A stretch of DNA of 26,241 nt. Source: Candidatus Iainarchaeum sp. (lineage in GTDB: Archaea > Iainarchaeota > Iainarchaeia > Iainarchaeales > 0-14-0-20-30-16). Below the pieces are notes generated by a model. The model made no database searches and was not told the origin of the DNA. It saw only the letters and a list, made by a program, of their open reading frames with translations. This document shows positions 98 to 23,654 of this stretch, in pieces; positions within the stretch are counted from its first letter, which is position 1; each line of letters starts with the position of its first letter. The DNA is taken from assembly GCA_028710695.1 (NCBI GenBank), contig JAQTTP010000010.1, positions 1 to 26,241 on the forward strand, in the 5' to 3' direction. Made by a program: the position numbers and the translations under genes.

Positions 98-1180
98 TTA
101 ATACTTGTTGTAAATCCTGTTCAGAACTATTTCATTCAACCTATTTAATCTGTCGATAATCATCTTTGTAGTTTTTACTGGAATTGCGGCATCAGATGCC
201 AAGTCTTCTGGCTTTGTAATCATTATTTCAAATAGATTATTCTTAGTTTCAACAACCTTTTCAATAATTGTTGAGGATAACTTTGGAATCTTTGACAATG
301 CCCTATATCCTCTTGGGGAGATTATTTCGTTCTTTTCTGTTTCATTATATCCAAGTAGGCTTAATAGCTCTTCTTTTGATGGCACTTCCGTAAGATTTAC
401 TAGGCTTTGTGTCATTTCTTCAAAGGTAATATCTCTTTTCTCTTTGTGGCAATAATCATAAATAATAAGTTCAAGTTCTCTGTCAAGGCCGTCAGTATAT
501 TCTGATAGCATGTCTTTTCTATCTTTACCTTCTTTCCCAAGTTCAATAATTGCTTTTTCTGCATTCCTTTTTTGAATTAGGGTTCCAATTATTTTTTGGA
601 TTATATTTGTTACATCTGTTAAGCTTACATTGTTTGTAAATTCATAATATGTTAATTCATTTAATGCAACTTCAATCTGAGTTCTAGTGTTATAAAGACT
701 CCTTAAGTTCTGATCAACGCTTGCCAAAACAAATTGTACTGGCTTTAACATGAATTCTTGTTCCTTGAAGAACAAGGTAATATTTTTTCTTCTTTTTGAA
801 ATTGCAACTACTGGCAGATTTGTTTGCTTTGCTGTCTGCTCCGCAGATCTGTGCCTAATTCCTGTTTGCTTTGAAGAAATATCTTTGTCTGGCATTAGAT
901 GGGCATTAGCATAGATTATTTGTTTTAAGTCATTACTTATTATAATTGCTCCATCCATCTTTGAAAGTTCGAATAAATTATTTGGAGTAAGTGGGACGTC
1001 TAAACGAAATCCACCCCTGATTATACATTCTAAAATTAAATTTCTGCCTACAACAATTAATGCACCGATGTCTCCTTTTAAAATTTCATCTAGTCCTGCC
1101 CTTAGAGGAGTCCCTGGCGAAACAAGTGGAATAATTTCATCAACGCTTTTGTATTCCTGCATTTTCTTTTCTTCTGTCAT
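98..1180 (-). CDS. disA: DisA-type diadenylate cyclase (DNA integrity scanning protein-like: DAC domain, helical linker, HhH-like C-terminus)
   Basis: DAC signatures are present in the translation: KMDGAIIISND and QTGIRHRSAEQTAKQT (DGA / RHR motifs). A long helical linker follows, then a C-terminal segment PEDLASDAAIPVKTTKMIIDRLNRL that resembles a helix-hairpin-helix. The size (about 360 aa) fits DisA. ATG at 1180 (MTEEKK) is preferred; the track start at 1189 is GTG. Confidence 0.8.
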   Translation of the reverse strand: MTEEKKMQEYKSVDEIIPLVSPGTPLRAGLDEILKGDIGALIVVGRNLILECIIRGGFRLDVPLTPNNLFELSKMDGAIIISNDLKQIIYANAHLMPDKDISSKQTGIRHRSAEQTAKQTNLPVVAISKRRKNITLFFKEQEFMLKPVQFVLASVDQNLRSLYNTRTQIEVALNELTYYEFTNNVSLTDVTNIIQKIIGTLIQKRNAEKAIIELGKEGKDRKDMLSEYTDGLDRELELIIYDYCHKEKRDITFEEMTQSLVNLTEVPSKEELLSLLGYNETEKNEIISPRGYRALSKIPKLSSTIIEKVVETKNNLFEIMITKPEDLASDAAIPVKTTKMIIDRLNRLNEIVLNRIYNKY

Positions 1181-1199
1181 AAAAACCACTTGAGTTATG

Positions 1200-10573: not shown

Positions 10574-11794
10574 CTAAAATATGAACTTTAACATAATCGG
10601 CAATGCAACTAGTGATCCTATGGTTGCACCTATATTACATAATGCCACAATTAATAAAATTCTACTCACTCTGTTACGCCTTAACTCTTTGAATGAAAAC
10701 TTAACATTACTAAGCCCCAAAAAATCCTCAACTTTTGGTTTGTCCGCCCAAGTCTCTACCGCACCCGCAATCCAACCTGTTGCAATTAGCGGGTTTGCTA
10801 CTGCAAAAGGCGCAGAGAAAAATGCGGCAAGAATTGTGATTAATCTTGCCCCCGCAATTATTGCACTTATTGCAGAAAATACTGCAATCACAAGATAACA
10901 GGTGATCAACATAGTCAGGCCCACACCCAACCCTTTAGTCATAAAGCCATAAACAATTAATCCAATAAATAAAATAGGAACTAACCATTGTAAAAGTTTG
11001 AATTTTTTCTTTTTCCTTACTTTATTTAGCTCAGAAAGGTCTGCTTTTTTTCCGGCCTTTAGATTCTTTTCAATGCCTTCTAAATGCCCTGCACCAACAA
11101 TAGTCAGCACTTTATCTGCCTTTATTCCTCTAATTTTTTCAGAAATAAATTGGTCTCTCTCGTCCACCAAAACCTCTTTCAAGTGTGGGAACTGTTTTAC
11201 CATCTCTTCCATTGCTTGGTTAATCAGATCTTGATTTTTCATTTCCTCTATCTTTTCAGGTGTAATTTGATCTTCCATCTTAAAAAATGACAAAAAGAAG
11301 AAGTACAGCATTTTGAATTTTTCTATAAAATTTAGTTTAAGCATTGCCCTCTTAAGAGTTACCTGCACATCCCGGTCTGCAAGCACAATTGGGATTCCAG
11401 CTGCTTTTGCAATACCGTAGGCCTCTAACATTTCTTGGCCAGGCATAACCCCTACCTTTTCACCCATTTTTTTCTGAAGATTAGCCAGATACAGATTCAA
11501 CAAAAACAAGTATACATTTCCGCTTTTTATAACCTCAAAAATATTCATTTGCTTCCAAGCCTGCTGATTAGTTAACTTATGTAATCTTGCCTCACAAAGT
11601 TCAATAGCAATAACATCTGGTTTTTCCTTATTAATAACTTCTTTTATTTGCTTCACACTGTCTTTAGAAATATGTGCAGTTCCAAGTAAAACGTGCTTAG
11701 TACTAGTATTATTTGGCCCAGAGATAGTAACTGTTCGTATTAGGTTTGTACTTTTTTTTGGCTTCTTAACCACAGTTGTCTTTTTTTCTGGCAT
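10574..11794 (-). CDS. TraB/PrgY-family protein with C-terminal multi-pass membrane domain
   Basis: Family motifs LLGTAHISKDSV and TIVGAGHLEGI are present, plus 4-5 hydrophobic helices at the C-terminus. The start was moved to ATG 11794 (MPEKKTT) because the track's start at 12013 runs through the tRNA-Gln gene on the opposite strand. Confidence 0.8.
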   Translation of the reverse strand: MPEKKTTVVKKPKKSTNLIRTVTISGPNNTSTKHVLLGTAHISKDSVKQIKEVINKEKPDVIAIELCEARLHKLTNQQAWKQMNIFEVIKSGNVYLFLLNLYLANLQKKMGEKVGVMPGQEMLEAYGIAKAAGIPIVLADRDVQVTLKRAMLKLNFIEKFKMLYFFFLSFFKMEDQITPEKIEEMKNQDLINQAMEEMVKQFPHLKEVLVDERDQFISEKIRGIKADKVLTIVGAGHLEGIEKNLKAGKKADLSELNKVRKKKKFKLLQWLVPILFIGLIVYGFMTKGLGVGLTMLITCYLVIAVFSAISAIIAGARLITILAAFFSAPFAVANPLIATGWIAGAVETWADKPKVEDFLGLSNVKFSFKELRRNRVSRILLIVALCNIGATIGSLVALPIMLKFIF

Positions 11795-11921
11795 AGTATT
11801 CACTAAATCCACAAATTGTTTATTAGATAATAAATATATAACAATTACTTGATTATATATATAAACGATTGCAAGTAGGCAAAGGACAGCATAAGTTAGG
11901 TAAAAGGCATAAGAAACAAAA

Positions 11922-11994
11922 AGCCCCGTAGTGTAGCGGCCTATCAGTAGAGGCTCTGGACCTCTAAACCTGGGTTCAAATCCCAGCGGGGCTA
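11922..11994 (+). tRNA. tRNA-Gln (anticodon CUG)
   Basis: Hand-folded. The acceptor stem AGCCCCG/CGGGGCT has an A1-U72 pair. The anticodon stem is AGAGG/CCTCT with loop CT-CTG-GA. The variable loop is AAAC. The T arm is CTGGG-TTCAAAT-CCCAG. The discriminator is A, and no CCA is encoded. The D stem is weak (only U11-A24 and G12-C23 are clean pairs). Confidence 0.85.
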
Positions 11995-11995
11995 T

Positions 11996-12067
11996 CTTTT
12001 CTTTCTTTTCCAAAAGAAAGAAAACCTAAGTTCGCTAAAGAAAGAAAAGGGTGGGCACAAGGCCCAC
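11996..12067 (+). repeat. Homopyrimidine tract, two homopurine complements and a GC hairpin immediately 3' of tRNA-Gln (terminator or structured trailer)
   Basis: TTTTCTTTCTTTT (11997..12009) pairs perfectly with AAAAGAAAGAAAA (12012..12024) across a CC loop. A second copy of AAAGAAAGAAAA lies at 12037..12048. The hairpin GTGGGC-ACAAG-GCCCAC is at 12051..12067. Confidence 0.5.
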
Positions 12068-13448: not shown

Positions 13449-15122
13449 ATGTCCGAAGACAAATTCTCTGCAAGTTTTAAGGAAAGCTCAGTTGCTGAAT
13501 TCTTTAAAAGAAACAGACAGATGTTGGGGCTTTATGGAAAGCTTAGATCTCTGACAACGGTAATTGCAGAATATGTTTGTAATTCTTTGGATGCTTGTGA
13601 AGAAGCAGGGATTCTTCCTGAAATAATAGTGAAAATAATTCCTTTGGGGGAAGAACATTATGAAGTCCATGTTATTGATAATGGCCCAGGAATCCCAAAA
13701 GATAAAGTAGGCAAAGCTCTAGGAAAACTTTTAGCAGGAACCAAATTCCACAGGCTAATACAAACAAGAGGACAGCAAGGTATTGGTGCAAGTGGATGTA
13801 TATTATTAAGCCAAGTGACTACTGGAAAGCCATCAAAAATAATTTCTGGAACTGGCGGAAAGCCCTTGTATATGGAACTTGAGATAGATACTGCGAAAAA
13901 CGAGCCAAAAATAAAGCTACAAAAAGAATTGGATTATGATTATCGGGGCATTGCGGTTAAGTCAGAATTCAAAGAAGTGAATTACCAGAACAGCAGCCAG
14001 AATGCTTTAGAATACCTAAAAAGAACCGCAATTGCAAACCCACATGCAACAATAAAATATACTGATCCTTTTAACAACACTTACATTTTTGAAAGATCGA
14101 GCGGATATATTCCAAAAACCCCAAAAGAAATCAAGCCGCACATAAAATGCATAACTGTTGATGAATTAAAAACCCTTGCAAAAGACCACTCAAAAAAGAC
14201 TATTGCTGGGCTATTCAAACAAGAGTTTGACAGGGTTGGAGACAAAGTAATCAAAGACATAAATTCCCTGTTGGATTTCGATATCTCAAAAGTAACTATG
14301 TCAAAAGCAAATTGGGAAATGTTTGAAAAGGTAGTAAAAGCTATTGACAAGACAAAAACTTTTGCACCAAGGCTTGACACCTTAATCCCAATTGAAGAAA
14401 AGTACTTAGAGGAATCTCTAAGAAAAATTATAAAGCCAGAATTTTTATCTGTACTATCTAGAAAGCCAACAGTATATCATGGCGGTTATCCAATACAAAT
14501 AGAAGTTGCTATTGCTTATGGCGGAGATGCAGGTCAGACATTAGCAAACAACGAAAAAAAGCTTGAGCTTATGCGTTTTGCTAATAGGGCCCCATTGCTT
14601 TTTGATGCCGGTGCTTGTGGAATCACAAAAGCAGTGAACTCTATAGAGTGGAGAAGATACGGTCTAAAAGATATTGAAAACCTTCCACTTTCTATTTTAG
14701 TAAATCTTTCATCTGTTCATATACCTTACACAAGCGCAGGAAAGCAGGCAATAGCAGAAGAGGAAGAAATTGTAGAAGAAATAAGAAAAGCGCTAATGAC
14801 TGCAGCAAGATCTCTTGGATTACACTTGTCCAAGAAAAGGCACCTAGAAACAAAAATGAAGAAAAGAGGGATATTCCTGAACTATGCAAAAGAGGTTGCT
14901 GAAGGCCTACATTTGCTGACAGATAGAAACAAGAAAGAGCTTATTGATAAATTAGAAGACATTATTACTAAAAAATTACAGATAGAAGAAATGAATGAAC
15001 AAGAAGAATCTGAAGACATAAGCGAAGGCGAAATCCCTGAAGATGCAGAAGAGAAAAAAAGTAAAGGTAAAAAAGATAAAATAACAGATTATTTTGAGGC
15101 AGATGGTGATCACGATGAGTGA
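13449..15122 (+). CDS. top6B: DNA topoisomerase VI subunit B
   Basis: Bergerat-fold ATPase motifs are present: EYVCNSLDA (N box), IDNGPGI (G1) and RGQQGIGASG (G2). The transducer region is followed by an acidic/Lys-rich tail. Confidence 0.9.
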   Translation: MSEDKFSASFKESSVAEFFKRNRQMLGLYGKLRSLTTVIAEYVCNSLDACEEAGILPEIIVKIIPLGEEHYEVHVIDNGPGIPKDKVGKALGKLLAGTKFHRLIQTRGQQGIGASGCILLSQVTTGKPSKIISGTGGKPLYMELEIDTAKNEPKIKLQKELDYDYRGIAVKSEFKEVNYQNSSQNALEYLKRTAIANPHATIKYTDPFNNTYIFERSSGYIPKTPKEIKPHIKCITVDELKTLAKDHSKKTIAGLFKQEFDRVGDKVIKDINSLLDFDISKVTMSKANWEMFEKVVKAIDKTKTFAPRLDTLIPIEEKYLEESLRKIIKPEFLSVLSRKPTVYHGGYPIQIEVAIAYGGDAGQTLANNEKKLELMRFANRAPLLFDAGACGITKAVNSIEWRRYGLKDIENLPLSILVNLSSVHIPYTSAGKQAIAEEEEIVEEIRKALMTAARSLGLHLSKKRHLETKMKKRGIFLNYAKEVAEGLHLLTDRNKKELIDKLEDIITKKLQIEEMNEQEESEDISEGEIPEDAEEKKSKGKKDKITDYFEADGDHDE

Positions 15123-18354: not shown

Positions 18355-19539
18355 ATGACAATGTACTACTACTCAAAGATTAACTCTTTCATATCTTGCC
18401 CACTTAAATTCAAATTCTCTTATATTGATAAAGAAGAAAAGGACTTTGAGACATCTATTGAAAGTCATCTAGGAACTACTGTGCACCACACTCTTGAAAA
18501 ACTTTACAAAGATCTACAGCATGGAAAATTAAACACAAAAAAAGAACTTTTAGATTTTTACAATAAAGAATGGCACAAAGAATTCAAACAGAAAACAAAG
18601 ATAGTTAGAGAGGAATACTCCGAAAAAGAAACTTTGAGTCGAGGAAAAGAGCACATCTCAGACTATTATGACAAATATTCTCCTTTTGACCAAGACTACA
18701 CTGTTGGACTAGAGCAACAGGTTTATTTGAAGCTTGGGGGAGATAAATATACTCTTACTGGGTACATTGACCGACTTGCCCTAAAAAAAGACGGAACTTA
18801 TGTAATTCACGATTATAAAACCTCCGGAACTCTGCCCACAAACGAATACATAGATGAGGACAAACAGCTTGCCCTTTACTCAATAGCAGTAAAAGAAAAA
18901 TACCCAGATGCAAAAAAGATTGAACTTGTATGGCATTATCTTGGTTTTGGGAAGGAAATAAGGATTACAAAATCTGATGAAAAGCTTGAAGAAATAAAGA
19001 CAAGCATTATGGCTTGGATCGATAAAATCGAAGAAGAGAAGGAGTTTAACCCAAAAGAATCTGCCCTCTGTGATTGGTGTGAATTTGCATCTAAATGCCC
19101 AAAAAGAAGGCATCTAGTAGAAACCAAACAGATGAGTTTAGAGAGATTCTCTGCTGATCACGGGGTAAAGCTTGTAGATAAATATACTGAATTAGCAATA
19201 CTAAAAAGCCACATATCCGGACAACTTAAAGAAGTAGAGGAAGATATTGAAAAATACGCAGAACACGAGAAACTTGACAACCTCCAAGGCACAAATGCGC
19301 TTATAAAGATCTTAAAAGAAGAAGGAATAAGGCTACCTTCAAAGACAAGCAAGGAATATAAGGAAATAAAGGATATGCTAATACAATCAGGGTTCTCGGA
19401 ACTATTGGATATAAACCAGTATTATATAGACAAACGCCTAGATTCCATACCCGAACCACTTAAATCAATGATCCAAAAGGCGATCACAAAAAGAGAGACA
19501 ACAAAGCTTAAACTTGTTTCAGATTCATTTATTGAGTGA
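18355..19539 (+). CDS. Cas4/RecB-like PD-(D/E)XK nuclease with 4-Cys (Fe-S) signature and a ~140-aa C-terminal extension
   Basis: The N-terminal Cys context is INSFISCPLKFKFSYI and the His motif is TTVHHTLEKLY. Nuclease motifs are GYIDRL (D), VIHDYKTS (D-x-K) and QLALYS (Q-x-x-x-Y). The C-terminal cysteines are CDWCEFASKCP (C-x2-C-x5-C). The start was moved to ATG 18355 (MTMYYYSK) because the track's TTG-type extension from 18232 overlaps the divergent gene. Confidence 0.8.
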   Translation: MTMYYYSKINSFISCPLKFKFSYIDKEEKDFETSIESHLGTTVHHTLEKLYKDLQHGKLNTKKELLDFYNKEWHKEFKQKTKIVREEYSEKETLSRGKEHISDYYDKYSPFDQDYTVGLEQQVYLKLGGDKYTLTGYIDRLALKKDGTYVIHDYKTSGTLPTNEYIDEDKQLALYSIAVKEKYPDAKKIELVWHYLGFGKEIRITKSDEKLEEIKTSIMAWIDKIEEEKEFNPKESALCDWCEFASKCPKRRHLVETKQMSLERFSADHGVKLVDKYTELAILKSHISGQLKEVEEDIEKYAEHEKLDNLQGTNALIKILKEEGIRLPSKTSKEYKEIKDMLIQSGFSELLDINQYYIDKRLDSIPEPLKSMIQKAITKRETTKLKLVSDSFIE

Positions 19540-19548
19540 ATAAATACA

Positions 19549-19556
19549 TTTATATA
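19549..19556 (+). promoter_or_regulatory. TATA-like box (TTTATATA) about 27 nt upstream of ATG 19579
   Basis: Read directly. No SD-like sequence lies between the box and the ATG, which fits a leaderless first gene of the operon. Confidence 0.4.
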
Positions 19557-19578
19557 CTTATTTAAGTCAGTATATTAT

Positions 19579-20217
19579 ATGATGAAATATATGGGATATA
19601 TTTTTGGATTGTTGTTAATTTTTGTATTGTTTAGCGGAATGGTGTTTGCTTTAGATCCTTTTGCGTTCAAAAACAAAATTGCACAAGACACTTTTGATAA
19701 AAAATTTAAAAATATAAATATTACTAGTTCGTATTATGTTAAACTATCTGGAACAGAAATAGGCATGGCTGGCACAGGATATAAAGCAGTTTTAAAAAGC
19801 GGTGGGGTATTATATTTAAGTTCACTAACTTGGCATATATTTTCTGACAAGTTCGTAGTAAACCTATTTATGCCAAACAAATGTTATGAAGATTTAGATG
19901 ATGCTGATTGTGGGCAGACTTTAGGAAAGCAAATTGAACTTAGTTTATATGGTAAAGAAATAGTTAATACTGAATATGGAAAAATCGAAGTAAACCTTGT
20001 ACAGTTCGGGCTGGATTATACAAAAGATTTGAAAAAATGTGACAAATATGACTCTGTATTACAAGGAGTTTATAGTAATTATGATGGTTATGTTAGCCAA
20101 ACAAGCACAGACAACATATGCAGTGCTTTATTGTCAGGAAATTTTAAACAAGGAAAATCAATACTTTACAACAAAGACACAGTTTATGTGGTTTTAAAAA
20201 TAACGGAGTTAAATTGA
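19579..20217 (+). CDS. Secreted hypothetical protein, paralog A (Cys-containing, ends VLKITELN)
   Basis: The signal-peptide-like N-terminus is MMKYMGYIFGLLLIFVLFSGMVFA. It shares sequence blocks with the next ORF (SYYVKLSG, the LKITELN terminus). It has 4 Cys. Confidence 0.7.
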   Translation: MMKYMGYIFGLLLIFVLFSGMVFALDPFAFKNKIAQDTFDKKFKNINITSSYYVKLSGTEIGMAGTGYKAVLKSGGVLYLSSLTWHIFSDKFVVNLFMPNKCYEDLDDADCGQTLGKQIELSLYGKEIVNTEYGKIEVNLVQFGLDYTKDLKKCDKYDSVLQGVYSNYDGYVSQTSTDNICSALLSGNFKQGKSILYNKDTVYVVLKITELN

Positions 20218-20235
20218 GGTGATTATGATGAAGAA
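20195..20235 (+). repeat. Gene-junction cassette copy 1 (TAAAAATAACGGAGTTAAATTGAGGTGATTATGATGAAGAA)
   Basis: It is 39/41 identical to 20859..20899. It contains the last 7 codons (LKITELN), the TGA stop, GAGGTGAT (complementary to the 16S 3' end) and ATGATGAAGAA. Confidence 0.85.
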
Positions 20236-20881
20236 GATATTAAGTTTGTTAGTGGTTTTAGTTTTAATGTCTGGGTTGGTGTTTGCTTTTATTCCGATGG
20301 ATAAAACAGTAACTATAAACAAGTTTGGATACAACTACGCAAAAAGTACAAATTCATATTATGTAAAGTTATCTGGAGCAGGTTATGCTACTTGGGGAGA
20401 ATCACCATGGACAGATGGAAATACAACATCCATAAACCCTGGCTTTAAACAAATTCTAAAAGACGGAACTAAATTAGAGTTTAAAAGTGTTGCTTATAAT
20501 TGTACTTCTGTTTTTTCAAAAAAAGATTTTGTAGCATTTTTTGATTTATGTGGAAGCAATATACCAAATTATTGTGTTTCCTATGATTTAGGCTTACAAA
20601 AAGGAGATAGCATAATTATTACAAAAACTAATGGAAAAATGAAATTGACATTAGAATATTTAACAGTACCTTCTACAACAATTTTGACAGAATCATTTTA
20701 CTCAAACGATCTTGTAAATGCATCTTTATGTGACAAAGACGAACCACTACTAGTCGGATCTCCTTTAAACACATACTTAGAGAACATGGACGGTTCACCA
20801 TTTATGCAATTATGGGAAACAGTTTATTTTATTAAACCAAAACAAGCATACGCAATACTAAAAATAACAGAATTAAATTGA
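20225..20881 (+). CDS. Secreted hypothetical protein, paralog B (Cys-containing, ends ILKITELN)
   Basis: The signal-peptide-like N-terminus is MMKKILSLLVVLVLMSGLVFA. The GAGG core ends 5 nt before ATG 20225 (the track start at 20219 is the GTG inside the SD). It is a paralog of the preceding ORF. Confidence 0.7.
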   Translation: MMKKILSLLVVLVLMSGLVFAFIPMDKTVTINKFGYNYAKSTNSYYVKLSGAGYATWGESPWTDGNTTSINPGFKQILKDGTKLEFKSVAYNCTSVFSKKDFVAFFDLCGSNIPNYCVSYDLGLQKGDSIIITKTNGKMKLTLEYLTVPSTTILTESFYSNDLVNASLCDKDEPLLVGSPLNTYLENMDGSPFMQLWETVYFIKPKQAYAILKITELN

Positions 20882-20899
20882 GGTGATTATGATGAAGAA
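20859..20899 (+). repeat. Gene-junction cassette copy 2 (TAAAAATAACAGAATTAAATTGAGGTGATTATGATGAAGAA)
   Basis: See copy 1. The two mismatches are synonymous third-codon positions (ACG/ACA Thr, GAG/GAA Glu). Confidence 0.85.
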
Positions 20900-21236
20900 T
20901 AAATTTTATTATATATTAGCAGCAATATTGCTGATTTTGGCAGTTGTGCCACTAAGCTTTTCATATGCTTATTACCCAAGCACATATAACTATTACGGAT
21001 ACACTACTACAACATACACATCTAACACATATGTAGCACAAACATACCCAACATACTACTACCCCGCATATTATGTTCCAGCAACTTACTATGTTCCAGT
21101 AGTTAACTACTCCCCAGTTTACACATTCCCATATAGTTATTATGTAAACGGAGTTCCAACAACCTATGCATACGGAACCTATGGCTATCCAGCATATAAC
21201 TATGCTTATGGCTATACAACATATTATGTTAGTTAG
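20889..21236 (+). CDS. Secreted Tyr/Thr/Pro-rich low-complexity protein with no charged residues in the mature part
   Basis: The signal-like N-terminus is MMKNKFYYILAAILLILAVVPLSFSYA. The remaining 88 aa use only Y, T, P, A, V, N, G, S, Q and F, and I count 31 Tyr. The same SD/start cassette precedes it as for paralog B. Confidence 0.6.
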   Translation: MMKNKFYYILAAILLILAVVPLSFSYAYYPSTYNYYGYTTTTYTSNTYVAQTYPTYYYPAYYVPATYYVPVVNYSPVYTFPYSYYVNGVPTTYAYGTYGYPAYNYAYGYTTYYVS

Positions 21237-21248
21237 AAATAGCTAACT
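21231..21248. terminator. Hairpin AGTTAG-AAATAG-CTAACT spanning both convergent stop codons, flanked by T-runs (possible bidirectional terminator)
   Basis: A 6-bp perfect stem was read directly. TTTTTT follows on the plus strand. It lies between the stops at 21234..21236 (+) and 21243..21245 (-). Confidence 0.35.
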
Positions 21249-21518
21249 TTTTTCTTCTTTTTTTGGTTTTTTATATCTATATCCTTCATAGTACTTTCCA
21301 TCTATACATATACGGATCTTTTTACCCAAAAAGTATAATCTAAAGAAATTCCAAAGCCCCATCCACGGCGGCAGGTTATCATATTTTCCTTGTTCCCATT
21401 CAGAATTCCACCAGCAAGTACCATTGTGATACATATCTCTTGTATGCCTTTTCTCATAAGGGCAATGAGGACAAAGGTATTTCAAATGGAACTTCGCCCA
21501 CCATTTCTTTAGAATCAC
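21243..21518 (-). CDS. Hypothetical small Trp-rich, 4-Cys protein (CPHC...C...C) with Lys-rich tail
   Basis: 91 aa from a GTG start, with no in-frame ATG until residue 29. It has 7 Trp and 4 Cys. It is the only long ORF filling this gap and is co-oriented with the upstream genes. Confidence 0.45.
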   Translation of the reverse strand: MILKKWWAKFHLKYLCPHCPYEKRHTRDMYHNGTCWWNSEWEQGKYDNLPPWMGLWNFFRLYFLGKKIRICIDGKYYEGYRYKKPKKEEKS

Positions 21519-21536
21519 TTGAAAGCACCGTCCTGA

Positions 21537-21734
21537 TTAGATCATTTTCTTCGCCATTTTCTTTGCTTTTCGAAGGCAATTCTTATGCCAATACTGGCCC
21601 ATCCATTTAGTCTCTGGATTTCCCTGGTTACACAAAGCACATACTTCTAAATCCTTCTGCTGCGGCTTCTTCTGCTCTTCTTGATTATTATCCACAGTTG
21701 GAATTAGCTTCTTAAAAAATCCTTTTACATCCAT
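21537..21734 (-). CDS. Hypothetical small zinc-ribbon-like protein (C-x2-C-x15-H-x2-C)
   Basis: 65 aa from an ATG start. The metal-binding-like motif is VCALCNQGNPETKWMGQYWHKNCLRK, followed by a basic tail. Confidence 0.5.
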   Translation of the reverse strand: MDVKGFFKKLIPTVDNNQEEQKKPQQKDLEVCALCNQGNPETKWMGQYWHKNCLRKAKKMAKKMI

Positions 21735-21795
21735 ATCTTCACATCCATTTTTGTATCTTATTGCCTGACTAGATCAGGTTCTTTGCCCTATTTGA

Positions 21796-23256
21796 TCACT
21801 TATACCAGTTCTCAATCTTTATATTCCCGCCTGTTTCTTGCTTTTCTTCTTTGTCTTCCTTTGGGGGTTTATACTCAAACTTCTTTTCTTTCTGTTCCTT
21901 CTTCTTAAATAGCTTTTTAAAGAAAGACTCTTTTTTCTCTACTACTGCTGGTGCTACAGACACCGGCTTTTCCTTTACTTCAGAAGTCTCTGCAACTGTT
22001 TTTTCTAGTTCAGTAAATCTCTTGTTCCTAATTGGCTCTAGCTCTTCCGGCTCTTTAGATTCAATCTCAAGAATCTTCTTGTTAAGATAAGTCAAAACGT
22101 ATTCTATCTTCTCGTTCTCAGAATCAAAATAACTCTTTGTAATTGCGCCTGCTAAAAACTGTTTTTTCATATCTTTCTGCTTTTTTTTGTAAACATCTCT
22201 TTTTCCAATAAGTTCGTTCAAATCTTCTTTTTTTAACTTCTTTACTAAAAGAATTACGGTCTCTAATAAAAATATAAAAATAAAAAATCCCACAAGTAGG
22301 TAAAACCAAAGCCCTGGTTTAAGACTAAAATCAGTACTAAGCACCCCTTTACTTTTTCCATAAATAAATTCTAAATTATGGTCAAAAGAGATATAGGGAA
22401 ACATAAAATAATTCATAAAATAGTAATCTTTTGCCTTTTTTAGAGTCTCTTCTTTGCCATCAAAAACAAACTTCCCATATTCATTCCCAAACTCTTCGCC
22501 ATTTGCATAAAAAACTTTAAAATCTACGGAAAAAGGGCTATTAACTGTTCCATCTTTTTCAGGGTTTGTTATCTGAATATCTAATTTATCACTAAGCAAG
22601 ACATTATATTGATCAATAAAGGGAATATTTCGCCCGTGATATGTAAACACACCATAAATAAATAAGTCCATACTATTGGCATCTAAAGCAGGAATCTCAA
22701 AGCTTAATTTACATACAAAACCATCACAAGAAAATTGTCCATTTTCTATGCCTGGTTTAAGGACCCACATTTTCAAATTTTTTATATCTTTTTTATATGG
22801 GCTTATAGTATATTCCAAAGAAAGCTTCTGCCCAAAGTTATAAATCTCTTTTATTTTTGGCTTAATCAAATCAATATAATCAGTGATCTCTTCAACATCA
22901 AAGCTAAATTTCTGCTTAGAAAATTCGTAACCCGCTTTTTGTTCAAGGGAAACATCTAACTTGCCACCATAAACAAGATCTGAAGTTATGAAAAGATCAG
23001 GATTTGAAACATAAACATTATCCAATTTGTATAATTCTATTTTTTTATCATCCAAAAAAACCATTATCTTATCAAAGGGGGCCATAACCTGCCCATTTAT
23101 ATCAGAAAAAGACAATCTTAAAGTATTGATCTCTGTGCCTACAAGATAAGGTGCTGTTTCTGGAGCAGTTGTAACAAGCTCCAGGTTCGGAGTAAGGGCA
23201 AGCCCAAATACGGAAGGTAAGAAAAAAAACAGAAATATTAGGATGTATAATTTCAT
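21796..23256 (-). CDS. Single-pass membrane protein: signal peptide, ~290-aa beta-rich ectodomain, TM helix, Lys/Glu-rich cytoplasmic tail with SHOCT-like motif
   Basis: The signal peptide is MKLYILIFLFFFLPSVFG. The TM helix is WFYLLVGFFIFIFLLETVILLV (about nt 22243-22314). The tail contains KKQFLAGAITKSYFDSENEKI. GGAG lies upstream of the ATG, 10 nt after the preceding stop. Confidence 0.7.
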   Translation of the reverse strand: MKLYILIFLFFFLPSVFGLALTPNLELVTTAPETAPYLVGTEINTLRLSFSDINGQVMAPFDKIMVFLDDKKIELYKLDNVYVSNPDLFITSDLVYGGKLDVSLEQKAGYEFSKQKFSFDVEEITDYIDLIKPKIKEIYNFGQKLSLEYTISPYKKDIKNLKMWVLKPGIENGQFSCDGFVCKLSFEIPALDANSMDLFIYGVFTYHGRNIPFIDQYNVLLSDKLDIQITNPEKDGTVNSPFSVDFKVFYANGEEFGNEYGKFVFDGKEETLKKAKDYYFMNYFMFPYISFDHNLEFIYGKSKGVLSTDFSLKPGLWFYLLVGFFIFIFLLETVILLVKKLKKEDLNELIGKRDVYKKKQKDMKKQFLAGAITKSYFDSENEKIEYVLTYLNKKILEIESKEPEELEPIRNKRFTELEKTVAETSEVKEKPVSVAPAVVEKKESFFKKLFKKKEQKEKKFEYKPPKEDKEEKQETGGNIKIENWYK

Positions 23257-23266
23257 ATTATACTCC

Positions 23267-23578
23267 TTACATCTTCTTTACAAACTCTTCTGCACAACCT
23301 TTACAAACAAAATGTCCTCTGTATAACATACCCTCGTCCTTTTCTTCTTGGCAAAAGGTACATCTTGATGTTTCTGCATCTCTCATTGCCCAGGTTCTTA
23401 GTATATCCCAAGTTAACCAACTAGGAAGAATTAATTCCCTCAAAACAGACTTATCGTTTGCGATTATCTTTTGCTTAAACATTGGAGATATTTTCTTATC
23501 TATACTTTCAAGCCATCTTGCTTTATCTATGTCTCCAGTTCTTTGCATCTTTAAAATCATTGATTCAAATTCATCCAT
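23267..23578 (-). CDS. Hypothetical protein with C-terminal C-x2-C...C-x2-C zinc-ribbon-like motif
   Basis: The C-terminus is RCTFCQEEKDEGMLYRGHFVCKGCAEEF. ATG at 23578 (MDEFES) is preferred; the track start at 23584 is GTG. A TATA-like box (rc of about 23601..23613) lies about 28 nt upstream of the ATG. Confidence 0.55.
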   Translation of the reverse strand: MDEFESMILKMQRTGDIDKARWLESIDKKISPMFKQKIIANDKSVLRELILPSWLTWDILRTWAMRDAETSRCTFCQEEKDEGMLYRGHFVCKGCAEEFVKKM

Positions 23579-23654
23579 AAACACTCCCCCATCTCATTTA
23601 GTTTTATATTAAAAGAGCATTATTTTATATAAAGCTTTTTACCAATATTATGTT

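Follow-up and report, generated by a model that had tools for sequence, protein, structure and literature searches.

Three open reading frames (ORFs), named P1, P2 and P3 here, lie on the forward strand at positions 19,549 to 21,236 of a 26,241-nucleotide stretch of Candidatus Iainarchaeum sp. DNA (this whole stretch is referred to as the window). P1 and P2 encode diverged paralogs of putatively secreted proteins, and P3 encodes a tyrosine-rich protein. All three ORFs open with ATGATGAA, and when the sequence was re-read, their coordinates and tight co-oriented packing agreed with those of a first-pass annotation (Table 1). The window was compared with proteins (with handles such as P0003) and DNA segments (with handles such as L001), mostly of relatives. 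L005 and L006 belong to assembly GCA_002778895.1, L017 to an uncultured-archaeon MAG with contig CAZMCX010000001.1, L011 to GCA_964480435.1 and L002 to GCA_964358865.1.

The genus Iainarchaeum is a member of the Iainarchaeota (kingdom Nanobdellati) and hence of the DPANN archaea. This archaeal host, already proposed in the first-pass annotation, was corroborated by the window genes for GatD, topoisomerase VI A and B, the archaeal D-aminoacyl-tRNA deacylase (DtdA) and MCM. A RIO kinase, a KH protein, a class II aminoacyl-tRNA synthetase, a DisA-like diadenylate cyclase and a tyrosine recombinase were also found. The gene neighborhood of the trio is housekeeping in character, and the G+C content across the window is 30-37%. 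According to the sample names, the host probably lives in anaerobic groundwater.

Table 1. Features of the locus and of neighboring genes (positions of the window)
Feature	Position	Strand	Remarks
TATA-box-like TTTATATA	19549-19556	+	22 nt before the ATG of gene 1
P1 ORF	19579-20217	+	212 aa
Predicted signal of P1	19579-19650	+	aa ~1-24
P1+P2 segment	19591-20887	+	1.3 kb; in the window and L004, not in the closest relatives; ATGATGAA at both ends
Junction repeat, copy 1	20195-20241	+	seven LKITELN codons of P1, TGA 20215-20217, GAGGTGAT 20216-20223, ATGATGAAG of P2
P2 ORF	20225-20881	+	218 aa; likely true start 20228
Junction repeat, copy 2	20859-20905	+	LKITELN codons of P2, stop 20879-20881, GAGGTGAT 20880-20887, ATGATGAAG of P3
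TAAAAATA within L-K-I-T codons	20195-20202, 20859-20866		exactly 22 nt before the first ATG of the next gene
P3 ORF	20889-21236	+	115 aa; likely true start 20892
T-rich stretch TTTTTTCTTCTTTTTTTGGTTTTTT	21237-21275	+	3' of the P3 stop; runs into the 3' end of ORF 21243-21518, which is convergent
Cys/Trp-rich ORF	21243-21518	-	91 aa; convergent on P3
Zinc-ribbon-like protein	21537-21734	-	65 aa
Signal peptide, ectodomain and one transmembrane segment	21796-23256	-	486 aa
Gin-like zinc finger	23267-23584	-	105 aa
Topoisomerase VI B	13449-15122		557 aa
tRNA-Gln(CTG)	11922-11994	+
TraB/PrgY/GumN-family ORF	10574-12013	-	called from TTG
DisA-like protein	98-1189	-	DAC domain and DisA linker
Tyrosine recombinase	1200-2045

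Composition and conservation of the tyrosine-rich gene

After the predicted cleavage between SFSYA and YYPS, the mature P3 consists of 88 residues (Y31, T16, P9, V9, A6, S5, N5, G5, Q1 and F1), that is, 35% Tyr, 18% Thr, 10% Pro and 10% Val. The residues D, E, K, R, H, C, L, I, M and W are entirely missing. The 31 tyrosines and the ten missing amino acids had been counted correctly in the first-pass annotation. The 18 other proteins of the window contain 4.6% Tyr, and the ten amino acids missing from P3 make up 53% of them; with this composition, the chance of 88 residues lacking all ten would be ~2e-29, and that of at least 31 tyrosines among 88 residues ~1e-19. Eight YxY motifs and eight YY pairs were counted, and the beta-formers Y, T and V (63%) are interrupted by P, G and N. 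The Tyr-Tyr spacing was indistinguishable from that of shuffled sequences, with no periodicity. A predicted signal or anchor occupies aa 1-27, and modeling with AlphaFold2 (AF2) gave one confident helix, at residues 4-25; the remainder was disordered, with a predicted local distance difference test score (pLDDT) of 30. In a literature search, no papers on Tyr-rich archaeal or DPANN proteins were found.

Orthologs of P3 were recovered at several levels of divergence. A word-seeded search, which covered 5.8 billion proteins, returned P0005 (87% identity; from a Diapherotrites archaeon in the Crystal Geyser CG09 series) and P0006 (48%), and scans of genomes and metagenomes added L017 and L019 (83-85%) and L021/L022 (~65%). 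Every ortholog occupies the same site, flanked upstream by a PD-(D/E)XK nuclease gene and downstream by a set of conserved genes in convergent orientation, which encodes a 65-aa zinc-ribbon-like protein, a 480-486-aa membrane protein, a Gin-like zinc finger, a 160-aa winged helix-turn-helix protein and MCM. P3 has been kept at this syntenic site in at least five lineages. The orthologs also share the composition, with 29-36% Tyr, 13-19% Thr, 9-10% Pro, 9-11% Val and 0-4 charged residues. Conserved among them as well are the core AYYVPVVNYSPVYTFPYSYYVNGVP and the NYS sequon that it contains.

The ratio of non-synonymous to synonymous substitution rates (dN/dS), calculated by the Nei-Gojobori method, was 0.12 between the P3 genes of the window and L005 (36 synonymous and 21 non-synonymous differences). 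For comparison, the C-terminus of the adjacent nuclease gave 0.125, the pair of P3 and its 48% ortholog 0.26, and P1 compared with L001 0.17. Furthermore, when the ORF3 DNA was shuffled by dinucleotides, the 115-codon frame stayed open in just 13 of 5000 cases (p ~0.003); this shuffling of ORF length had been suggested in the first-pass annotation, and a chance open frame proved to be rare. These sequence comparisons show the Tyr-rich ORF to be a genuine gene, conserved and under purifying selection.

A different origin was weighed, namely that ORF3 is a chance frame in a C/A-rich stretch, or that it encodes a precursor or storage peptide without a structural role. The low complexity of P3 and its disorder in the AF2 model would fit this origin. 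Nevertheless, it is extremely improbable, given the low dN/dS, the persistence in at least five lineages, the Shine-Dalgarno (SD) site or own TATA box in front of the gene, the shuffling result and the lack of an adjacent modifying enzyme. The chance frame in particular was refuted by the dN/dS value, the syntenic orthologs, the SD/TATA signals and the shuffles, and the doubt expressed at first, that ORF3 might be unconserved in relatives, was dispelled by orthologs at 87-48% identity.

The T-rich stretch that follows the P3 stop codon is kept in L005 and resembles an archaeal oligo-T terminator, which may be its function. No RNA families were found in an Rfam scan of positions 19000-22000.

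The paralogs P1 and P2 and their insertion behind a putative promoter

P1 and P2 were aligned by BLASTP with 27% identity (E=3e-5). The alignment of the mature proteins reached z=12 over 1000 shuffles and still z=10.5 when the last 11 residues were left out, and the view of the first-pass annotation that they are old paralogs was thereby substantiated; its count of four to five cysteines in each was narrowed to exactly four in both. Cleavage is predicted between VFA and LDP in P1, which carries one N-glycosylation sequon, and between VFA and FIP in P2, which has a signal of aa ~1-21 and three sequons. In the family and its relatives, 2-4 cysteines (mostly four) and 1-3 sequons were counted per protein. 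The hallmarks of the family are a near-identical signal peptide (MKKILGIALILVLMCGMVFA, cleaved before F.P), the motifs SYYVKLSG, LKNG and CDK, and the C-terminus AYxILKITELN.

The family is small. The word-seeded search returned its own copy, P0003 (60%) and P0004 (66%) for P1, and for P2 only itself. In an exhaustive HMMER profile search covering 1.84 billion cluster representatives, the true relatives numbered four: P0004, P0007, P0008 and P0001, the last being P2 itself. The relatives of P2 are P0008 (235 aa, ending in LKITELN), P0007 and L002:1035-1601. No new loci were obtained in a metagenome scan with the P1/P2 alignment, and the family amounts to about ten members among billions of public proteins. 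When P1, P2, P3 and their relatives were searched against Pfam, NCBIfam and the PDB sequences, nothing above noise was detected. The partial P1-type protein P0004 is labeled Candidatus Firestonebacteria bacterium at NCBI; when P0004/L003 was compared with L002, the sequence proved to be present also on a contig of 39.7 kb that bears an archaeal ribosomal-protein operon (SUI1, RNase P p29, S4e), and an error of binning probably explains the bacterial label.

A further type of protein, called type 3 here, was found in L002 (172 aa) and L011 (178 aa). These two are 40% identical to each other and have a signal peptide like that of P1 and P2. They end in xVEVW, and the codons of this ending hold the SD site for the next gene. 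Type 3 proteins were considered as members of the P1/P2 family and rejected, homology of the mature domains not being demonstrable and the matches of the hidden Markov models (HMMs) arising by construction.

The AF2 model of P1 was all-beta, with low-to-moderate confidence (pLDDT 61, predicted template modeling score 0.60), and LKITELN formed the last strand, among the better-predicted parts. In donor-strand fibers, which are known from TasA-related bundling pili and Sulfolobus threads, subunits are joined through a donated strand, and P1 and P2 could be imagined as an archaeal fiber of this kind, with LKITELN donated to the next subunit and P3 as a minor or matrix component. In favor of such a fiber, both are predicted Sec-exported all-beta proteins of ~190 aa whose terminal strand is the most conserved motif. 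Yet the AF2 monomer packs the LKITELN strand into its own sheet, the copy number of P1/P2 is variable, with the genes missing in close relatives, and neither Pfam and NCBIfam nor the structural search gave a match to TasA/camelysin (Peptidase_M73) or the archaeal bundling-pilin family. We regard a donor-strand fiber as very unlikely.

The start of P1 differs from those of the two following genes. No SD site was found upstream of gene 1, and in L005 and L017 the Tyr-rich gene is preceded by TTTATAAA, 22 nt and ATG, the same geometry as for P1 of the window. Leaderless archaeal units lack an SD and have a TATA box ~25-30 nt before the start codon. The start of gene 1 would thus be consistent with a leaderless transcript from a putative promoter at this box. 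At both of the other junctions, the stop TGA overlaps a perfect GAGGTGAT, which is followed by T and ATGATG, placing it 1 nt from the first and 4 nt from the second ATG. Genes 2 and 3 are therefore not leaderless, and the leaderless operon of the first-pass annotation is retained at most for gene 1 (TATA, 22 nt, no SD). Related loci show GGTGA, 4 nt and ATG at this place, and their N-termini read MKK or MKN, which suggests the second ATG as the likelier start of P2 and P3; the MMK beginnings are partly an artefact of ORF calling.

The two junctions are the copies of a 47-nt direct repeat and share 91% identity, although P1 and P2 have just 27% protein identity, and an exact 24-mer is common to both copies (chance expectation 0). 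A purely DNA-level cause of the LKITELN conservation, through this repeat, was considered and rejected, since the peptide is kept with synonymous changes in L001 and L015, where no gene follows. This synonymous retention indicates that the conservation of LKITELN is a protein-level constraint, beyond a by-product of the SD junction. The distance of TAAAAATA, within the LKIT codons, to the next ATG equals that of the TATA box to P1, and the L001 counterpart reads TGAAAATA; this element may be an internal promoter from which genes 2 and 3 would be transcribed without leaders, or an AT-rich coincidence.

In six segments (L005, L006, L017, L019, L021 and L022), the Tyr-rich gene stands directly behind the nuclease gene, with its own TATA box, TTTATAAA, in the geometry that precedes P1 of the window. 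When L017, L005 and L006 were compared with the window by blastn, they were colinear with it as far as 19590 and then from 20888 onward, at 78-86% identity. Because the flanks are colinear with L017/L005 on both sides, the P1+P2 segment is best read as an insertion between putative promoter and start codon; repeated precise deletion elsewhere would be less parsimonious. The first three codons of P3 in the window are ATGATGAAG, matching P2, and those of the orthologs are ATGAAAAAT. The arrangement of the window recurs in L004, a separate sequencing run, which is 100% identical over 18369-23135. In L011, the slot before the Tyr-rich gene is filled by one secreted-type protein of 178 aa. The three-gene operon of the first-pass annotation is consequently no conserved or ancestral unit, the Tyr-rich gene being alone behind the same putative promoter in the six relatives.

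An intact relic, KYAILKITELN with its stop, was observed in L002 (1611-1646), 10 nt past the stop of a 188-aa P2-type gene that ends in LILEIEEVY. The 3' flank of this relic resembles that of the L001 gene, like the fossil of a 3'-end gene replacement. Taken together with the differing number of genes and an insertion bounded by ATGATGAA, this relic suggests that members of the family are swapped through recombination at the conserved gene ends. The locus would represent a natural case of promoter capture, in which a leaderless monocistron has been turned into an SD-coupled operon by a two-gene cassette.

Export and a candidate envelope module

Export was judged on 14 proteins by our own n/h/c heuristic and the -3/-1 rule, in place of a trained predictor. 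All 14 contained one or two K/R in the n-region, an h-core with a mean Kyte-Doolittle value of 2.6-3.6 and a cleavage-like site (VFA, VSA, SYA or ANA), and no transmembrane-like window past aa 30 was found in any of them. All 14 look like substrates of Sec and signal peptidase I, which for the three window proteins upholds, on this heuristic, the Sec-type N-termini read in the first-pass annotation. The cysteines (mostly four) and 1-3 sequons of each globular protein fit an extracellular location.

Other routes of export or anchoring left no trace in these proteins. Class III (prepilin/archaellin) signals have a short basic leader that ends in [KR]-[GA] and is cut just before the hydrophobic stretch; the N-termini MMKYMGY, MMKKILS and MMKNKFYY contain no K/R-G/A junction before the h-region. 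A lipobox was likewise missing: some relatives have LMC-G with Met at -1, and the window proteins have Ser (LFSG, LMSG). Nor was a PGF-CTERM/archaeosortase anchor found, the C-termini LKITELN and TTYYVS having no hydrophobic segment and NCBIfam giving no match. At the two solitary P1/P2-type genes, the genes upstream (L001 1-285, L016 35-817) encode C-terminally anchored surface proteins, one of which ends in TGTPTGFPILGSGIFAGIIVLLILGAFIYRGR, PGF-CTERM-like; a cell-surface context for the P1/P2 family is therefore suggested.

Our preferred explanation, to which a probability of roughly 0.5 is given, is that the trio is an exported cell-envelope or extracellular module with a self-associating Tyr-rich core and variable accessory partners, P1 and P2. 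Confidence is high for the part that concerns a real exported gene set and low for the mechanism, and the cell envelope is the most likely site of action. The sequences themselves show the structure of the genes, their homology and selection, the insertion, the translation signals and the lack of a known family; we infer export, assembly and the partnership of the two gene types.

The module would have been built in two layers. The first is P3, a constrained core gene of the clade, in every case behind the PD-(D/E)XK nuclease gene, with a TATA box that would give a leaderless mRNA. The second is a 1.3-kb cassette of two diverged, predicted all-beta, four-Cys, sequon-bearing secreted paralogs (YYVKLSG...CDK...AYxILKITELN), inserted exactly between the putative P3 promoter and start codon, so that one promoter would now drive three genes, the first leaderless and the second and third via the GAGGTGAT overlapping the upstream stop (translational coupling). 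Once exported and signal-cleaved, the Tyr-rich chain would be disordered and poorly soluble as a monomer, and would self-associate on the outer membrane face or the S-layer via aromatic stacking and hydroxyl hydrogen bonds. This assembly, possibly stabilized by glycosylation or oxidative Tyr-Tyr links, would yield a coat or adhesive material, and the globular paralogs would be variable partners that bind, cap, anchor or diversify it.

A variant compatible with the preferred explanation is that P3 keeps its signal uncleaved as an anchor and displays the Tyr-rich tail as a membrane-tethered surface brush. The long h-region of P3 (~18 residues), the confident AF2 helix over residues 4-25 and the poor cleavage site of P0006, where Val occupies -1 (FSYV before YY), would favor such a tether. 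It is nevertheless unlikely, because four of the five orthologs have the canonical S-Y-A site with a helix-breaking Pro before it, at -7, and because A-N-A occupies this site in the L015 analogue.

The partnership within the proposed module was assessed from the distribution of both gene types. A Tyr-rich ORF occurs in five locus types, and in three of these it adjoins a signal-tagged family or type 3 gene: in the window, in the order P1, P2, Tyr-rich gene; in L011, at the same site as in the window, with the 178-aa type 3 gene first; and in L015, at another site (with radical SAM, PLD and AP endonuclease neighbors) and in reverse order, the P2-type gene following the Tyr-rich one. No further Tyr-rich ORFs were found in the DNA collected for comparison. 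A co-occurrence like that envisaged in the first-pass annotation, with the type 3 gene counted in, was thus found in three of five Tyr-rich locus types, and neither in the closest relatives nor in L001 or L016. An accessory role of P1/P2 fits because the adjacency to Tyr-rich genes is repeated yet non-obligatory, and on the sequence evidence a functional partnership of the Tyr-rich gene and the P1/P2 family appears to be the likelier case.

The same distribution bears on another interpretation, in which P1 and P2 are fast-evolving secreted proteins with functions of their own (antagonism, nutrient capture or cell contact, for example) that spread as a cassette into the P3 unit, recombining at the conserved 5' (signal-peptide) and 3' (AYAILKITELN) ends. 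Such spread would account for the ATGATGAA that bounds the insertion, for the zero, one or two genes that precede the Tyr-rich gene, for family genes at unrelated sites (L001, L002, L016), for the L002 relic with its L001-like 3' flank, which indicates replacement at a conserved end, and for near-identical signal peptides on unrelated mature domains (type 3 and P1/P2). Nevertheless, only about ten family genes are known, and in both the window and L015 they adjoin a Tyr-rich ORF, at different sites and in opposite orders, which would be hard to obtain by chance; a third adjacency, that of L011, is at the window's site, and its 178-aa gene shares only the signal peptide with P1/P2. Independent spread is therefore considered possible and somewhat unlikely.

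Several results weigh against the envelope module with partner proteins. The Tyr-rich gene of the closest relatives has no P1/P2 gene alongside, and P1/P2-type genes without a Tyr-rich neighbor are present in L001 and L016; since each type can stand alone, the partnership is non-obligatory and the adjacency could be a coincidence of insertion site. The Tyr-rich ORF of L015 was tried as a homolog of P3 and rejected (BLASTP E=1.5 after composition adjustment), and is a compositional analogue only. Type 3 proteins share with P1/P2 only the signal peptide and two short motifs (hhalign probability 0.2%). P3 has no internal repeats beyond two short 18-nt duplications, and neither repeats nor a Tyr periodicity like those of known amyloid or solenoid subunits, and the 26-kb window contains no oxidase, peroxidase, laccase, sortase, secretion or assembly gene. 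Additionally, a Foldseek search with the P1 model, itself of low confidence, returned no fold match in the PDB or BFVD. The impression of the first-pass annotation that no characterized family is involved therefore stands, Pfam, NCBIfam, the PDB sequences and Foldseek all being without a match.

The proposed module resembles several known systems in part. Tyr-rich wall proteins harden extracellular walls via dityrosine links (PMC4776368, PMC2726925, PMC2196470). The coccidian oocyst-wall proteins GAM56/GAM82 and TrOWP, plant extensins and nematode cuticle proteins combine, like P3, a signal peptide with Tyr-rich low-complexity sequence, but P3 has no homology to these eukaryotic proteins, is far smaller and lacks any charged residue. 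Dityrosine systems moreover need an oxidizing enzyme, and no peroxidase, laccase or oxidase domain was found in the 26-kb window; the host of P3 is also probably anaerobic, and the likeness of P3 to these systems is compositional only (35% Tyr, eight YxY).

Functional amyloid subunits such as curli CsgA, Fap and Methanosaeta MspA are, like P3, small Sec-exported proteins encoded with accessory secreted proteins, and the high content of beta-formers in P3 and its predicted disorder as a monomer add to the likeness. In contrast to them, P3 has no imperfect repeats, Q/N ladders or Tyr periodicity, the tandem imperfect strand-turn-strand units of the curli/Fap type were not found in it, and homology to them was not detected in Pfam, NCBIfam or the PDB sequences.

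For P1 and P2, the only non-family HMMER matches were PKD-like/Ig-like repeats of giant Bacteroidota surface proteins (PKD_3, Ig_3), whose SYQWKLNGTNVGTNSNTYQNAALTNGAKV resembles SYYVKLSGxxxGxxGxGYKAVLKNG of P1/P2. The E values, 1e-7 to 4e-4, are sums over 4-9 near-identical repeats. This resemblance is a lead at most and was rejected as evidence, the hhalign probability being 1% over 34 columns and no Pfam Ig or PKD domain being found on P1 or P2.

Variable surface-protein families, such as the variable lipoproteins of mycoplasmas, offer an analogy. Members of the P1/P2 family diverge in the mature part, which lies between a near-identical signal peptide and conserved C-terminal codons; their copy number differs between strains, and recombination relics are present. 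P1 and P2 differ from the mycoplasma proteins in their archaeal hosts, and no lipobox, repeats, invertible promoter or recombinase was found at the locus.

DPANN archaea rely on the cell surface for contacts with cells and minerals, and their surface proteins are mostly unannotated. The locus yields a selection-constrained gene for an extreme exported protein, 35% Tyr and uncharged, together with an ortholog set and a small candidate partner family; P3 and P1/P2 are targets for metaproteomics, heterologous expression and materials-type assays. A more specific and speculative proposal, which we hold to be unlikely, is that P3 is the subunit of a novel archaeal extracellular material, an aromatic self-assembling or Tyr-cross-linked DPANN coat or glue, with P1/P2 as exchangeable adaptor or specificity cassettes. 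On present evidence, both families are orphans, and their kind, small Sec-exported envelope proteins of which one has extreme low complexity, is not categorically new. If the proteins were ordinary lineage-specific secreted orphans, the value would be limited to annotation.

Neighboring genes

Among the genes convergent on P3, the 65-aa zinc-ribbon-like protein has an invariant C-terminus, ETKWMGQYWHKNCLRKAKKMAKKMI, and no Pfam or NCBIfam matches. Its gene is among the two best-kept segments in the comparison with L005/L006/L017, with 89% nucleotide identity to L005/L017, and a 101-bp piece of L006 reaches 91%. The Cys/Trp-rich ORF (CPHCPYEKRH...CWWNSEW), also without family matches, is intact in L021 (95 aa) and apparently truncated in L017 (51 aa). 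The 486-aa protein, for which no family matches were found, consists of a signal peptide, a large ectodomain, one transmembrane segment and a Lys/Glu-rich tail; it pairs with the Gin-like zinc finger, and the pair is syntenic in L005, L006 and L011.

The topoisomerase VI B of L011 (698-4057), the 48% relative, has 1119 aa and includes an intein with a LAGLIDADG domain, and that of the window is without an intein. The TraB/PrgY/GumN-family ORF overlaps the tRNA-Gln(CTG) gene with its 5' end, and its start as called is probably over-extended. The gene for the DisA-like protein adjoins that of the tyrosine recombinase.

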